Positions 898 to 6,972 of a stretch of DNA of 40,313 bases are shown here, one piece after another (position 1 is the first letter of the stretch; the number at the start of each line of letters is the position of its first letter). The DNA comes from Escherichia phage Mt1B1_P3. Location: sequence record MT496969.1; one strand, written 5' to 3'. The notes below the pieces were generated by a model that did no database searches, was not told the origin of the DNA, and worked only from the letters and a program-made list of their open reading frames with translations. The position numbers were made by a program, and so were the translations under genes.

Positions 898-2661
898 CTA
901 GTGGAACGTAACGTAGGACCCTAGTCCCAGCTCGTCGTCCGTATCGTGAGTTACCCGGACCCCATTGTCCCAGAACTCCGTGTGGATGGACTCGAAGCCT
1001 TTCCGTGGGTTCTCCATCTGTTCCTCCAGCCACTCCTCAGTGACTTCACGTTCGCCTTTGTTGGCATCCTTCGCCATAGACTCAACGAAGAACTGTACAC
1101 CGATAGCCAGCGCATCAAGTCGGTCATCGTGTGCCAATGCTCCACGTTCACGAGAGATACGTGTCATCTGGTAGAAGAGAGAATAGATAGGGTTACGAAC
1201 ACCATCCTTATCAGAGGCAGACTGGTAATCTTGGACGATAGCAGCAGCGTTGACGATAAGTCGGTGAGACCCCATGATAGGCTCCAGAACGTCACAGATG
1301 CGTAGTTCCTTCTGACCCTTACTCTTCACTTCAGTTACAGCAGCAGGATGAATACGGGAAGCTACAGGCTTGAATAGCTCAAGGTACATACCATCACCGA
1401 AGTTACCCTCAATGACGTATTCGTTTACCTTCCACTTACGACCAATCTTAGCCAAGGCTTCCAGCGTAGAGTCTTCATAGCCACCTCGCATACCGCCAAC
1501 TTCCATAGCGAAGATGTAGCCGTTTAGCTGGTACAGTACCGCATAACCTGTTTCATCCTTACCACGACCACTAGGGTCAATGACCAGAATCTTCTGGGTG
1601 TACGAACTGAAGGCAGAACCTACAGTCTGATACGTGTGGTATGAGTCACCCATGAGTCCAACGTTAGGAACGTCCTCACGCTTGTTCTGAGGGTTAGGAA
1701 GCCATTGGTAGACCATTGGGCTAGACGCTGGGTCCAAGTCTGCTACGATAAGGTCACGGAGCTTCAGAGGGTACTTCTCGGCATCACTCAGGTTAGGGTT
1801 AAGCATGAATTGTAGAGCGAAGCCAGCTTTACCATAGGACAGCTCACGTTCCTTCAGGTCCGTATCATCGAATCGTACTTCATCGGTAGGACGCCAGTAG
1901 AAGGACTCAGGGTCCTCTTCAAGCTCTGCCTGAAGCATAGGAGCCAGACGGTCTCCGTAAGACTGCCAGTCCTTCTTATCGCGTGGGTAGCGAGCGGGCC
2001 AGATGGTAGTGGTATATCCACGACCTTCCAGCTCACGATACAAGGTCATCTCGTTCTGAGGAGTACCCAGATAGATGATTGTACCTCCCGGCTTCAGGAT
2101 AGCGTCGAACTCTTTCACAAGCTCTGACAGACGGTCTCGTGCAGCCTGAGTCGCTGAGTTGTTCGGAACCTCCACGTCATCGGCAATCAGGATGTCAGCA
2201 CGACTACCAGTCAACTGACCAGTGATACCAACGGACTTAACCGAAGGTGAGTGATCTGGCTTGGCTGGTCCAACGTCGAAGCTGATAACAGCATCTCGCT
2301 GCCCCTGCTTAGGTTTAAGTTCCTGAAGCTGAGGCATGAGGTCGATGATTCGCTTGATGAATATGGAGTTCGCATCTGCTCGTTCCTTTGAGGCCGACAC
2401 AATCATGAACTTCAAGTCTGGGTTGTTCCACAGTTTCCATACCACGAATGCGCACGTTATGAATGACTTCCCGATACCACGGAACGCCTGTAGGATGAAA
2501 CGCCTGTTGTCCCCAGCCGATAGTTTCTTCGCCATGTCAATCTGACAGCGAGTCGGGACTGGTAGTGACAGGGCTTTCCACAGGACGAACAGGAAGAACA
2601 CGAAGTCTGCCTTCATACGGGCAGTCATTAGCGCCTGACGCGCCACTAAATCTTTACTCAA
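898..2661 (-). CDS. 19: Terminase large subunit (DNA maturase B)
   Basis: 587 aa; collinear with T7 gp19 ([26 protein letters not shown] Walker A-like, [12 protein letters not shown]). Start appears to be TTG overlapping the Rz stop (TTGA) with AAGGAGGT 7 nt upstream. Confidence 0.95.
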
Positions 2662-3107
2662 TGCGTCACCTCCTTATCTTGCTGCAAGGCTCTCACAGTG
2701 TCCTGAAGGGCCTTAATCCACTTGTCTCCTTTCACTCCGATGGCGATAAGACGTTTAGCATCTCGTTCGTCAAGTTCGGCGTAACCATCAATGACGCATC
2801 GACCGTCACTTTGCGTGGTTCCACTCGTTGGCTTGACTCGGATGCGCAGCCGCTTATTGTCAGACTGAAGGTCAGCAATAATCCTATCAGTGCTGCCTTC
2901 CAGCGAGGACATTTCGTCCTGAAACCGTTTGGACACTTTGTTGACTTCAGCTTGGACAGCAAGCCTTGTATCTTCCGATGCCTTAAGATTCGAGGTGTAT
3001 TCTTCATTGACCTTAGCCTCCCACTTATTGTTAGCGGTGTGGTAGCCACCAGCAAACATCACTGCTGCAAGTAACCACGGAGCCGCTCTCTTTAAAAATT
3101 CGAGCAT
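2658..3107 (-). CDS. 18.5: Rz-like i-spanin (gp18.5)
   Basis: 149 aa, N-terminal TM segment ([14 protein letters not shown]) followed by charged coiled-coil region; position and size match T7 gp18.5. Confidence 0.8.
2732..3007 (-). CDS. Candidate embedded Rz1-like o-spanin lipoprotein (gp18.7-like); start uncertain
   Basis: Alternate frame inside Rz encodes ...[25 protein letters not shown]...: hydrophobic stretch plus lipobox-like ISGC. No ATG/GTG/TTG close to the signal peptide; nearest in-frame ATG is at 3007. Confidence 0.4.
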   Translation of the reverse strand: MKNTPRILRHRKIQGLLSKLKSTKCPNGFRTKCPRWKAALIGLLLTFSLTISGCASESSQRVEPRKVTVDASLMVTPNLTNEMLNVLSPSE

Positions 3108-3165
3108 AGTTGCCCTCCCGGTTTATCAGATTTCACGTAGAGTCGCCTCCACTAGTTAGTGTTAA

Positions 3166-3205
3166 CCATAAAGGCCACTACATATAGTAATGACCTTGAG
3201 TCTAA
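3166..3205 (-). promoter_or_regulatory. Putative RNase III processing hairpin (R18.5-like)
   Basis: Conserved element ATAAAGGCCAC-N10-ATGACCTTGAGTCTA also at 26682-26719 and 33882-33921; imperfect stem AAGGUCA/UGGCCUU in minus RNA; located between genes 18 and 18.5 as in T7. Confidence 0.45.
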
Positions 3206-3208
3206 CAC

Positions 3209-3472
3209 TTATTGAACACCATACCCGGTGTCATTATCTTCTGTAGCTGAGAGCACCTTATCGTACTCTGCGTTCAGGGCCTCCATATCAGCGAGCGTCT
3301 TCTCGTCAACAGACACCTTGCTTAACACAAAGTTGTGACGAGCAAGCAGCTTCTCAATGGCGTTGTAGAGCTGAGGTGAACGCTTAGTGTCATCCCGCAG
3401 GTCTTGCAGCATGAGTCGAGCACGTTCAGTATCTAGCATTAAGAGGAACTTCTCTAAGTCCATCTGCGTCAT
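3209..3472 (-). CDS. 18: Terminase small subunit (DNA packaging protein A)
   Basis: 87 aa; size and position match T7 gp18 (89 aa); stop overlaps holin gene start. Confidence 0.8.
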   Translation of the reverse strand: MTQMDLEKFLLMLDTERARLMLQDLRDDTKRSPQLYNAIEKLLARHNFVLSKVSVDEKTLADMEALNAEYDKVLSATEDNDTGYGVQ

Positions 3473-3666
3473 GTTTTACCACTGCCTCCTTTAATCGTTT
3501 TGTAGACTAGCACACCAATCTGGACAACGGTGTACGCGATAGCTGCAACGTAGAACCATTCGTTCAGTGTAAGTCCGAAGAAGAACCGACTGGCACCATC
3601 AGCCGCAGCGGTCCCGACGATAGGAGAGGCTTTAAGGACCTCATTCTTGAAGTCTAACTCAATCAT
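3469..3666 (-). CDS. 17.5: Holin (gp17.5-like, class II)
   Basis: 65 aa with hydrophobic core (FFFGLTLNEWFYVAAIAYTVVQIGVLV) and charged C-terminus; T7 gp17.5 position. Confidence 0.75.
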   Translation of the reverse strand: MIELDFKNEVLKASPIVGTAAADGASRFFFGLTLNEWFYVAAIAYTVVQIGVLVYKTIKGGSGKT

Positions 3667-3777
3667 AAAACCTCCAGTTTAAAGCGGGTCGTCCGTGACC
3701 CAAAGTTGTTACCTTATGTTGTTTAGCGTGTAGTTAGCCTCTACCTCCACAACTTAATGGCAAAAGGGTTTTGTTTA

Positions 3778-6700
3778 TTACTTCTGTTCAAGAGCAGAAA
3801 GTCTGGCTTCGATTCTTTCCAGTTTTCTTCTCTGATAAGCGGCTTCAGCAAAGAAAATTCCGTCAGGCCGAACACCCCACTCCTCACCCTCTTCATGGAT
3901 AACCACCTCAGTGAATACAGGCTCTTCCGTAGTAGTGACATTACCCTCCTCGTCAGTGTGTTCAATGATTTCATTGTGCGAAAATACCGTATCGGTCATC
4001 CGTGGATACTTGTCATAGCACAGAACGGCATAACGACAATTCGTACTGTTTTCATCCATCAGACCGTGTGCAATGAATACATCACGAATTTGCTGAGCAA
4101 TAACCCCGAAGTGAATACGAGCATCATTGCCTTTCAGTTGAACAGCATCTAACCATTGATACATGATGTAGTGAACGTCACCCCAGGCATCTAGGAAAGC
4201 ATCATCAAAAACTACCGGCTCTGTTTTCTTCTCCCCATTAGAAGTAACAATAGGGTTGCTTCCGAGATATGCAGTTGTGAAACGGTTACTTGGTCCACCA
4301 AGCGCAATGACGTTATCGTTATAAGGCTTAACGTCAGCAGTCTGGAACAGATGCTCATCACCATTGTAAACTATTCGCCTTGAGTCTGTGTTATTTGCAC
4401 CATAAAGCGTAATCTGTGCGCCAGTCGTTGAACTGGTGCCTTCACCTCCGCAAAATATGGTGCGCTGCCCTGCCGGGTTATCAGTCGGTATAGACTTCCC
4501 GATAAACCCATATTCACCTTCCATTAAAACTTCAGAGCGAATGTTACTACTGGTGCTGGCTCTAAGGGTCACATGACCTAAACCCAAATCCCCTGTAAAT
4601 TCCATTGGTGCAGGAACAGTGCGAATCCCATTCGTATCAAAAAACACGGGAACAGCTCTGTTAGGTACAGCACCATACCTGAAATCACGGGAAACATGAT
4701 TGCTTGGGCCAATCTTCATTTTGTAGCAATACAAATCTGAGGGATGACCATCCGCTTTGAATGGGTCCTTCGCTGAGTTATCTCCATAGGTCCATGGGTT
4801 AAAATGGTCCTCTCCACCAAACATGTAGTAGATGTAATTATCCTTCACAACTACCGAACCAACACCTACACCTGAGTTAACTATTCCGCCCTGATAAATC
4901 TGGTCAGTGATGTTAACCCATTCAATATCATCTGCATTCCAATTGTTTACATTCAATCGTGCATAGAAGGTGCGAGGATAAGATGCCTTGTAACGATCAT
5001 CTGGTGCACCTGCTTCCCATTCATTTTCTGCACGTTCTGAACCAAACATAATAAGGTCATCCCCTACTTTAGCAAAAGGTAATGTAGTATGATGAACATT
5101 ATGTGGAAATCTCAGTGACTCCCAAGTCTGACCTATGTCTCTACTACGATGCAAAGAGCTACCTAGCCTATCCCCACGAGTGCCACGAGTGATAAGGTAT
5201 AATACACCGTCATAGTACTTTATGCACGGCTCTGACGCATCTGGTTCATACTCAGATGGTATCTGACGGCGAACATAACTAGATGGGCTATTGAAAGCGT
5301 CAGGGAAGTAGAAAAGCCCAACTTCGCGTGGAGCTACATCGCCTTGATGATAACCCATAACAAAGCCATTGTTATCAATAGTAGCAAAGCTATGCACCTC
5401 TGTGACACGAGGGATTAGACCAAGGTCTGTCTTACGCCATGGAGACTTATGGAAAGACGTACCCATGTGCCAATTCTTTCCAGCGTTATTCAAATCTGAA
5501 GTCTGCTGGTTGGGTGTAAGAACCGTGAAGTTGTCCTTATCTATTACGGTTGCAACAGTCATATCACCGGATACACCTGTTACCGCAGAATTAGAGAAGT
5601 TAACAAAATCACCCACGAATAGTCCGTGGTCTGGTACATGTATTGTTGCATATTGCTGATTTGCAGCTTTAGTGATACCACCAGTAAGATGCAGGCTACG
5701 AGACATGGGGCGATCCCATAATGCACAATTGGTTAATGCGTTCTTGGCTAAAGTACGTGTTTCAATCATGGCAAACAGACGGTTGCGACATACACCCATA
5801 CTCATACAGTGATAGTTCACTGTAGGGTAATCTGGATGCAGATCAGTTAGCCACTCTGGAGTAGACCATGTTTGACCATCATCACCAGACTTAACCCATG
5901 ATACATGCAGACGACTAACACCATGACGATCGCTACCCATGTAAGGTGCATATATCACATTATCATATACGAACGCTTTATCCTGAGGCCACGCATTGTA
6001 ATAAGGGGTGTCCGTTATTTTGAACAACTCACCCTGAACAAATTCCTCAGAGGCATAATAAAGAGGTTGTCCGGGAATGCGCTCATAAACGAAACGAGTG
6101 TTGATGAAGCGACTAATGTCAGGTAGGGATGTGACCTTATATGTCTTCCCATTGCCATTAATCTTTTGTCCAACCGGTATGTCGTTTAATGCGCTCGTTA
6201 ACGCTGCTGTATCATCAGTGACGCCATCACCTTTAGCACCCCAACCACGAACATCTTTTTCATCAAGCCAGCGTGCTCTATGTAATTCAGGGTAGAGTAT
6301 TGCCCCTTCAGGATTTGAAATCTGACTTCTTAAAGCAGCATCACCAACACTAACCCACGCACCTAATCCAATCCCACCGGAAGTTTCAGGAGTTGAACCA
6401 GCAGGAACGTTCTTTGGAAGCGTACCATCCCAGCGGTAATAATCACCATCCTCTTCCCATAGCAGGACCTCGCTCCATGTTGTAACGTTGTAGCCTTTCT
6501 CGAAGGAGCGACGGGTAATATAGCCAAGTCTACCAGCTTCCCTGATACTCTCAGCGATTCGTCGTGCTTCGTCCTCGCTATCCTTAGCGTTGCCAGCAGA
6601 GCTACTAGCAGCATCGGCATATTCCTTCGCTAAGTCAACCGTTTGGTCTCGACCTTCTTCTGCAATATGGATAGCCTGAAGCTCTGAATTAGTCAGGTCA

Positions 6701-6972
6701 CTAGCTGTCAACACTGAGCCATTCCTGAAGTCTACCACTAAGTCAGTTCCAGTCTGACGGTGAATACGAACGATGTCGAAACCTGATTGGTCAACCAACA
6801 TCTCAATCATCGTTGGATTAAGGAATCGGTAATCTCGACCAACTTCCAGTACACGGTTTAGGGTAGGGTTAGAGCTATTCACCAGCGTAACAACAATAAA
6901 CGTTCTGGCTAGGTAGTCGAACTCAATCCTGTACTGAGTGTTTCCTGAAGGGAATTGTGTAATCGTGGACAT
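3778..6972 (-). CDS. 17: Tailspike endosialidase (endo-N-acetylneuraminidase) with T7 gp17-like N-terminal adaptor and C-terminal intramolecular chaperone domain
   Basis: 1064 aa. N-terminus (FDYLARTFIVVTLV...DYRF...LVDFRNGSVLTASDL...IHIAEEGRD) aligns to T7 tail fiber N-domain; two Asp-box motifs SGDDGQTW and SRDIGQTW (sialidase beta-propeller); C-terminal GNDARIHFGVIAQQIRDV...AVLCYDKY resembles autocleaving chaperone domain of K1F endoNF. AGGAGG-CATA-ATG start. Confidence 0.93.
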   Translation of the reverse strand: MSTITQFPSGNTQYRIEFDYLARTFIVVTLVNSSNPTLNRVLEVGRDYRFLNPTMIEMLVDQSGFDIVRIHRQTGTDLVVDFRNGSVLTASDLTNSELQAIHIAEEGRDQTVDLAKEYADAASSSAGNAKDSEDEARRIAESIREAGRLGYITRRSFEKGYNVTTWSEVLLWEEDGDYYRWDGTLPKNVPAGSTPETSGGIGLGAWVSVGDAALRSQISNPEGAILYPELHRARWLDEKDVRGWGAKGDGVTDDTAALTSALNDIPVGQKINGNGKTYKVTSLPDISRFINTRFVYERIPGQPLYYASEEFVQGELFKITDTPYYNAWPQDKAFVYDNVIYAPYMGSDRHGVSRLHVSWVKSGDDGQTWSTPEWLTDLHPDYPTVNYHCMSMGVCRNRLFAMIETRTLAKNALTNCALWDRPMSRSLHLTGGITKAANQQYATIHVPDHGLFVGDFVNFSNSAVTGVSGDMTVATVIDKDNFTVLTPNQQTSDLNNAGKNWHMGTSFHKSPWRKTDLGLIPRVTEVHSFATIDNNGFVMGYHQGDVAPREVGLFYFPDAFNSPSSYVRRQIPSEYEPDASEPCIKYYDGVLYLITRGTRGDRLGSSLHRSRDIGQTWESLRFPHNVHHTTLPFAKVGDDLIMFGSERAENEWEAGAPDDRYKASYPRTFYARLNVNNWNADDIEWVNITDQIYQGGIVNSGVGVGSVVVKDNYIYYMFGGEDHFNPWTYGDNSAKDPFKADGHPSDLYCYKMKIGPSNHVSRDFRYGAVPNRAVPVFFDTNGIRTVPAPMEFTGDLGLGHVTLRASTSSNIRSEVLMEGEYGFIGKSIPTDNPAGQRTIFCGGEGTSSTTGAQITLYGANNTDSRRIVYNGDEHLFQTADVKPYNDNVIALGGPSNRFTTAYLGSNPIVTSNGEKKTEPVVFDDAFLDAWGDVHYIMYQWLDAVQLKGNDARIHFGVIAQQIRDVFIAHGLMDENSTNCRYAVLCYDKYPRMTDTVFSHNEIIEHTDEEGNVTTTEEPVFTEVVIHEEGEEWGVRPDGIFFAEAAYQRRKLERIEARLSALEQK

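Follow-up and report, generated by a model that had tools for sequence, protein, structure and literature searches.

A conserved upstream ATG as the probable start of the embedded o-spanin gene in Escherichia phage Mt1B1_P3

The spanin locus of Escherichia phage Mt1B1_P3 poses the question of where translation of an o-spanin begins when its reading frame is buried within another gene. An earlier, sequence-only reading of the window (the whole stretch of DNA analyzed, 40,313 nucleotides of record MT496969.1) had described a spanin pair in which the i-spanin gene, Rz, was clear and the o-spanin embedded in it lacked an obvious start codon. Either a non-canonical start or an unusually long N-terminal region had been proposed.

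The window is assigned to a Kayfunavirus, a K1F-like member of the T7 family. Across 2600-3500 it matches Kayfunavirus MT1B1P3 at 100% identity and many K1F-like coliphages at 97-99%, and at least 600 T7-family genomes match in this part. The minus strand carries all genes, and the spanin pair lies between terS and terL, downstream of the holin gene (Table 1), an order shared with T7, K1F, Pipis, and Peacock. A TTG start is apparently used by terL. A plus-strand ORF of 169 aa (2565-3074) is regarded as spurious, being antisense to Rz with all genes on the opposite strand. An Rfam search of the entire stretch gave no match at the gathering score, and a scan for sigma-70 promoters and terminators across 2600-3700 returned nothing relevant exceeding the shuffled expectation.

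Table 1. Positions of the spanin genes, their start-site elements, and neighboring genes in the window
Feature	Coordinates	Strand	Description
Tailspike	3778-6972	-	ORF
Holin	3469-3666	-	ORF
terS	3209-3472	-	ORF
Shine-Dalgarno (SD) sequence GGGAGGG of i-spanin gene	3113-3119	-	5 nt before ATG; anti-SD duplex -10.8 kcal/mol
i-spanin gene, Rz/gp18.5 homologue, 149 aa	2658-3107	-	ATG-initiated ORF
SD sequence GGGAGG of o-spanin gene	3017-3022	-	9 nt before ATG; from Rz codons W29-E30-A31
o-spanin gene, Rz1/gp18.7 homologue, predicted 91-aa preprolipoprotein plus stop	2732-3007	-	+1 frame of i-spanin gene; TGA 2734-2732
N-terminal extension (n-region) of predicted signal peptide, codons 1-37	2897-3007	-	Net charge +12; 0 acidic residues
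Alternative in-frame TTG	2960-2962	-	38 codons before Cys, ~21 before core; SD -3.5 kcal/mol
Hydrophobic core and lipobox, codons 38-54	2846-2896	-	Cys codon TGC 2848-2846
Predicted mature o-spanin, 38 aa	2735-2848	-	Translation
terL	898-2661	-	ORF

The Rz call was borne out: the 149-aa ORF occupies exactly the interval proposed for it and is 56% identical over its full length to T7 gp18.5, and it matches PHROG 1327 ("Rz-like spanin") with an E value of 5.5e-61. The match to Pfam PF03245 (Phage_lysis) reaches 23.5 bits (E 7e-5), below the gathering cut-off of 25.4, and the protein is best classed as a distant relative or analogue of the lambda Rz family rather than a member of it. An N-terminal hydrophobic segment at approximately residues 4-20 has the top hydropathy among 17-residue windows and is followed by a periplasmic coiled-coil-type domain; the i-spanin would be a type II inner-membrane protein. 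Its Cys104 is conserved in 15/15 sequences of the lineage alignment.

Inside Rz, the +1 frame is open from 3055 to 2732, and the o-spanin gene lies wholly within the i-spanin gene on the same strand, its ATG beginning with base 2 of Rz codon 34. The encoded protein matches Pfam PF17531 (O_Spanin_T7) over residues 32-88 (88.6 bits, cut-off 25, E 2.6e-25) and PHROG 4306 ("Rz-like spanin") over residues 3-88 (E 2.3e-36). The proposed pair with an embedded o-spanin is fully supported, and the locus is identified by homology as a standard embedded two-component spanin of the T7 family, gp18.5/gp18.7.

The lipobox-like ISGC reported after a hydrophobic stretch also proved sound. The protein matches the classical lipobox pattern, {DERK}(6)-[LIVMFWSTAG](2)-[LIVMFYSTAGCQ]-[AGS]-C with a hydrophobic core in front, up to Cys54; hydropathy over 13 residues peaks at 2.31, and the lipobox, T-I-S-G↓C, is followed by the mature sequence CASES. 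The mature N terminus, C-A-S-E, has Ala at position +2 and no Asp, and sorting to the outer membrane would therefore be expected. The lipidated Cys is the sole Cys of the mature protein. LEGSTDRII, the best conserved motif of Rz, is overlapped by the core and lipobox, and the codons beneath these two are nearly invariant across 15 lineages (columns 98-117); the mature motif VDASLM...L..L is present in 82/82 loci of the comparative set described below.

Counting back from the Cys codon (2848-2846), the first in-frame ATG upstream of the lipobox is reached after 53 codons, at 3007-3005, in agreement with the 52 codons counted earlier within the ambiguity of the reference point. The GGGAGG at 3022-3017, which ends 9 nt before this ATG, had gone unremarked. 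When anti-SD pairing was scored before each in-frame codon of the embedded region, the ATG had the strongest duplex (-10.2 kcal/mol), ranking 19th among 799 gene-strand ATGs and close to the values for the genuine starts of Rz (-10.8), the tailspike (-10.3), and the holin (-10.0). A second SD-like element, TAAGG, precedes the same ATG at 3015-3011. The remark that no GTG or TTG lies near the signal peptide holds only loosely, as there is a TTG 38 codons before the Cys, preceded by an AAGG just 1 nt from it, and another in-frame TTG 10 codons before the Cys, which falls within the hydrophobic core and is unusable as a start.

A rule of thumb for lipoproteins, heuristic rather than biochemically required, places the Cys at position 15-35 and a Lys or Arg among the first seven residues. 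The Lys/Arg part agrees with both the ATG and the TTG, but the Cys falls at position 54 from the ATG and at position 39 from the TTG; position 35 would be reached only from a non-canonical CTG located 34 codons upstream. Points against the ATG are the position of Cys54 outside the 15-35 range and the decision of the SpaninDB curators to shift the start downstream for a good LipoP score. Within Mt1B1_P3, the chance of an open extension is 0.07 given the Rz protein and codon usage; with a 7% chance in this phage alone, the argument for the start rests on the comparative set of related lineages.

That set comprised 82 distinct Rz/Rz1 loci from T7-family genomes, including T7, K1F, Pipis, and Peacock. 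The homologous site lies 48-53 codons ahead of the Cys and reads ATG in 80/82 loci and GTG in 2/82, and in 81/82 a GGAGG-type SD of -9 kcal/mol or stronger precedes this start. The Rz residues that supply the SD differ by clade (W-E in K1F-like, Q-E-V in T7-like, and K-E-E in K11-like phages), as does its spacing. In both GTG loci the Rz residue is altered (Asn to Arg or Ser) and a start codon is retained. The Asn codon that provides the AT of the ATG is invariably AAT, yet AAT is the minority Asn codon in the genome (113 AAT versus 333 AAC). In 31/82 loci the conserved start is preceded by a stop at a distance of 0-2 codons, and no stop was found between this start and the Cys in any of the 82.

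Stop avoidance was assessed at Leu, Ile, and Val codons of Rz where the synonymous choice can yield a +1-frame stop, in 15 lineages sharing <92% nucleotide identity. Stop-making codons were used at 0/62 such positions in the extension, 0/122 in the core and mature region, and 37/102 in Rz outside the o-spanin ORF (Fisher p = 2e-9 across the 15 lineages, a statistic that ignores shared ancestry). Conservation extends to no other start: the TTG at 38 codons is confined to the K1F clade (16/82 loci), and in five loci (L015, L023, L024, L026, and L039) the interval from 40 to 15 codons before the Cys contains no further canonical start. The strength of the SD, the conservation of SD and start, and the upkeep of the open frame are directly established, as are the gene identities and the geometry of the overlap.

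The ATG is therefore the best-supported candidate start and the only one conserved across the T7 family. Translation of the o-spanin probably begins there, from its own ribosome binding site, to give a 91-aa precursor with a 53-aa signal peptide (probability roughly 0.74). The description of an o-spanin without an obvious start is not supported, as the upstream ATG has both the strongest SD of the embedded region and the family-wide conservation. Of the two options offered earlier, the evidence favors the long N-terminal region, which appears from the alignments as a family-wide trait and is not peculiar to Mt1B1_P3; a non-canonical start is unneeded and unsupported. A literature search for start-site experiments (ribosome profiling or N-terminal mapping) on this phage, T7 gp18.7, or K1F found none.

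The main rivals involve the TTG, either together with the ATG or on its own. Dual initiation is unlikely; on this reading most precursor would be the 91-aa form from the ATG, with a lesser share of the 76-aa form from the TTG. Both codons are in frame, and either precursor would contain the complete core and lipobox; the 38-aa lipoprotein released would be identical, and thus a second start would not be selected against. Further in-frame starts do occur in other clades (in 20/82 loci an ATG at 31 codons from the Cys, in 55/82 a TTG at 21), but these inner starts have weak SDs, none is conserved between clades, and nothing in the data demands them.

Initiation solely at the TTG (2962-2960), with a 76-aa precursor, a 38-residue signal peptide, and an upstream ATG and SD that are incidental to the Rz sequence, is quite improbable. 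TTG is a canonical start in bacteria, and terL of Mt1B1_P3 apparently uses it; this one is kept in 16/16 K1F-clade sequences, gives the better LipoP score, and was chosen by the annotators of Peacock and in the SpaninDB entry for K1F. However, its SD is weak (Table 1), it is missing from sister clades (L014-L026) in which signal peptide and mature protein are the same, and it still leaves the Cys at position 39, beyond the 15-35 range. Initiation at the TTG alone would also leave unexplained both the conserved SD with its ATG or GTG and the 15 stop-free codons between ATG and TTG.

A non-canonical start near the core is highly improbable. One candidate is the CTG at 34 codons from the Cys, which would satisfy the classical rule and which SpaninDB lists as the start for PE3-1; the others are a CTG and an ATA, 14 and 13 codons before the Cys, downstream of a moderate SD-like GGAAGG (-5.5 kcal/mol). 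Measurements of start codons in Escherichia coli, however, put initiation at CTG and ATA at no more than about 1% of that at ATG. The first CTG has no usable SD (-3.0), the starts at 14 and 13 codons would produce a signal peptide without a positive n-region, and a strong, conserved, canonical start is already present upstream. That the embedded frame is not a gene and its lipobox-like motif a chance product of the Rz sequence is for practical purposes refuted: short out-of-frame ORFs are common and none of the NCBIfam models matches the embedded frame (or the i-spanin), but the PF17531 match, the mature sequence conserved in 82/82 loci, the almost invariant codons where the frames overlap, with 0/122 stop-making choices in core and mature region, and the yeast two-hybrid interaction of T7 gp18.7 with gp18.5 (cited in PMC3276506) all speak against it. 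A frameshift fusion of Rz and Rz1 was likewise dismissed, as an independent SD and start are conserved.

With initiation at the upstream ATG, the pathway may be outlined as follows; ATG use, the processing steps, and the lysis function are here inferred from the comparative data, from lipoprotein biogenesis, and from homology. The o-spanin would be translated from the internal ribosome binding site (GGGAGG, 9-nt spacer, ATG) as a precursor whose signal peptide consists of a strongly basic n-region of 37 residues and a hydrophobic core of 13, followed by the lipobox I-S-G↓C. By the general route of lipoprotein biogenesis, this precursor would be exported via Sec; Lgt would lipidate Cys54, LspA would then cleave before it, Lnt would N-acylate the Cys, and Lol would carry the o-spanin to the outer membrane. 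Homology further suggests that the 38-aa mature lipoprotein pairs with the periplasmic C terminus of the i-spanin and that, once the holin and endolysin have acted, the spanin complex disrupts or fuses the outer membrane.

One of the closest known counterparts, gp18.5/gp18.7 of T7, also lies between terS (gene 18) and terL (gene 19), its o-spanin nested completely in the +1 frame of the i-spanin gene. Its ATG occupies the homologous Asn-Glu site of Rz behind a GGAGG SD, and the two o-spanins share the TISG↓C lipobox, the mature motif VD[AS]SLM...L, and a long signal peptide, with the Cys at position 49 in T7 and 54 in Mt1B1_P3. T7 gp18.7 has been annotated from this homologous ATG as a protein of 83 aa (PMC3276506). 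The T7 and Mt1B1_P3 systems differ in that the i-spanins are 56% identical and the Mt1B1_P3 extension is 5 codons longer. In addition, T7 has two inner starts, an ATG at 31 and a TTG at 21 codons from the Cys, that could give signals of canonical length, albeit with weak SDs, whereas Mt1B1_P3 has neither and carries TGT at 21 codons before the Cys.

The pair of K1F is near-identical to that of Mt1B1_P3, with few amino-acid substitutions and the same ATG, TTG, signal peptide, and 38-aa mature protein. SpaninDB assigns K1F to the T7 i-spanin family and the K11 o-spanin family (Kongari et al. 2018, PMC6139136) and starts its o-spanin at the TTG, whereas the comparative analysis favors the ATG. 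The curators flagged the ambiguity with the comment "Too long signal sequence" when moving the start downstream, and the start of the T7-like phage 13a was likewise shifted (PMC6139136). Annotations from a single center conflict in the same manner: Pipis uses the ATG (91 aa) and Peacock the TTG (76 aa). The 91-aa database homologue P0001 starts at the equivalent Met, and NCBI and UniRef name it "Rz1-like spanin outer membrane subunit." Lengths for the o-spanin family are 57, 74, 84, 90, 91, and 142 aa in the protein collection; with SpaninDB and GenBank entries included, they are 57, 72, 74, 75/76, 84, 90, 91, and 142 aa.

Seen against these records, the system is already known, and the apparent missing start is best read as an ambiguity of annotation, noted earlier by curators. 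The practical value of the result lies in annotation; to satisfy LipoP, even expert curators had shifted the start downstream. The comparative data argue that the far-upstream ATG would be the real start throughout the T7 family; if so, the signal peptides of T7-family o-spanins would be about twice the usual length. The choice of start alters neither the mature protein nor the view of spanin function.

Rz1 of phage lambda has a short canonical signal peptide and, in its mature form, a periplasmic Cys for disulfide dimerization, whereas the mature o-spanin of Mt1B1_P3 has only the lipidated Cys. Lambda Rz/Rz1 resembles the Mt1B1_P3 pair in its o-spanin embedded in the +1 frame, its topology logic, and its presumed disruption of the outer membrane (PMC6139136). 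There is no significant sequence similarity between the o-spanins, and lambda Rz1 is listed at 60 aa in SpaninDB (PMC6139136).

The remaining question concerns the long, basic n-region that the upstream ATG would add. Its charge of +12 compares with a mean of +9.8 obtained by synonymous resampling of Rz (P = 0.08), and other clades lie at or below their own null; selection for basic charge was rejected on these grounds. The basic character is a by-product of Glu/Lys-rich Rz codons read in the +1 frame. The sequence of the extension and its underlying third-codon positions vary freely among clades, unlike the codons of the core and lipobox.

In some autotransporters, the ESPR similarly places an extension of tens of residues before a normal core and cleavage site, and export remains Sec dependent. 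Selection acts on the ESPR, whose sequence motif is conserved, whereas the Mt1B1_P3 extension varies freely among clades and owes its charge to the Rz frame; the likeness is one of analogy only, and the extension is not a member of that class. A Tat-type signal was dismissed, as the extension has no twin-arginine motif and the RR of T7 lies ~20 residues from the hydrophobic core. It is very unlikely that the long basic extensions of these 48-53-residue signal peptides act as a functional device, either slowing or timing export or yielding a released cationic peptide that is membrane active at lysis, rather than as mere spacers.

The long n-region instead appears to be a spacer, its length arising because the sole site in the Rz coding sequence with both an SD and a start codon sits ~35 codons upstream of the core. 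The locus thereby exemplifies how gene overlap can constrain the placement of a start site. The nearest Rz segment that provides both an SD and a start codon is K-W-E...N-E, just past the Rz transmembrane helix.

Outside the K1F clade, some T7-family phages may have a second start for the o-spanin. An in-frame TTG lies 21 codons before the lipobox Cys in 55 of the 82 T7-family Rz/Rz1 loci compared, including T7 itself (L003) and K11-like loci such as L046, and all 55 lie outside the K1F clade. Initiation at this TTG in these non-K1F loci would yield a textbook 21-residue lipoprotein signal (M-P-R-W-K-G-A-L-I-G...); the Shine-Dalgarno sequences preceding it are weak, with anti-SD duplex energies of -1.6 to -6.9 kcal/mol. 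The homologous codon in the window is TGT (2911-2909). Under the name "Rz1-like spanin outer membrane subunit", the databases list two 57-aa homologues, P0004 and P0007, that begin at the TTG 21 codons before the Cys. Both are o-spanins of the Klebsiella phage type, and the NCBI organism labels are Micrococcus luteus and Staphylococcus argensis. The underlying contigs are 232 and 368 bp long, and the records look like phage contamination of assemblies of these two bacteria.

Other features of the window are listed below.

Further features of the window
Feature	Coordinates	Strand	Remarks
ORF antisense to the spanin genes	2565-3074	+	169 aa, GTG start
terL ORF, opening TTG	2659-2661	-	Overlaps the i-spanin stop (aTTGA)
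Shine-Dalgarno sequence of the terL TTG	2668-2676	-	TAAGGAGGT, near perfect, 6 nt upstream of the TTG
terS/i-spanin intergenic gap	3108-3208	-	101 nt, strong hairpin
Tailspike ORF	3778-6972	-	1064 aa

The terS/i-spanin intergenic gap folds with a minimum free energy of -38 kcal/mol (z = -4.2), and none of the shuffled sequences was equally stable. It is conserved relative to its counterpart between genes 18 and 18.5 in T7 and to those of other clades. No Rfam family matching the hairpin was found. The hairpin is probably the equivalent of R18.5, because this RNase III processing site sits in the corresponding gap of T7.

The antisense ORF is most likely spurious, since the recognizable genes all lie on the opposite strand. 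The tailspike ORF matches K1F gene 17 in length and position, which fits the Kayfunavirus assignment. The terL gene is a further case of inconsistent start codons within this genus: the TTG is the annotated start in Pipis, and an ATG 30 nt downstream is that in the K1F RefSeq record.
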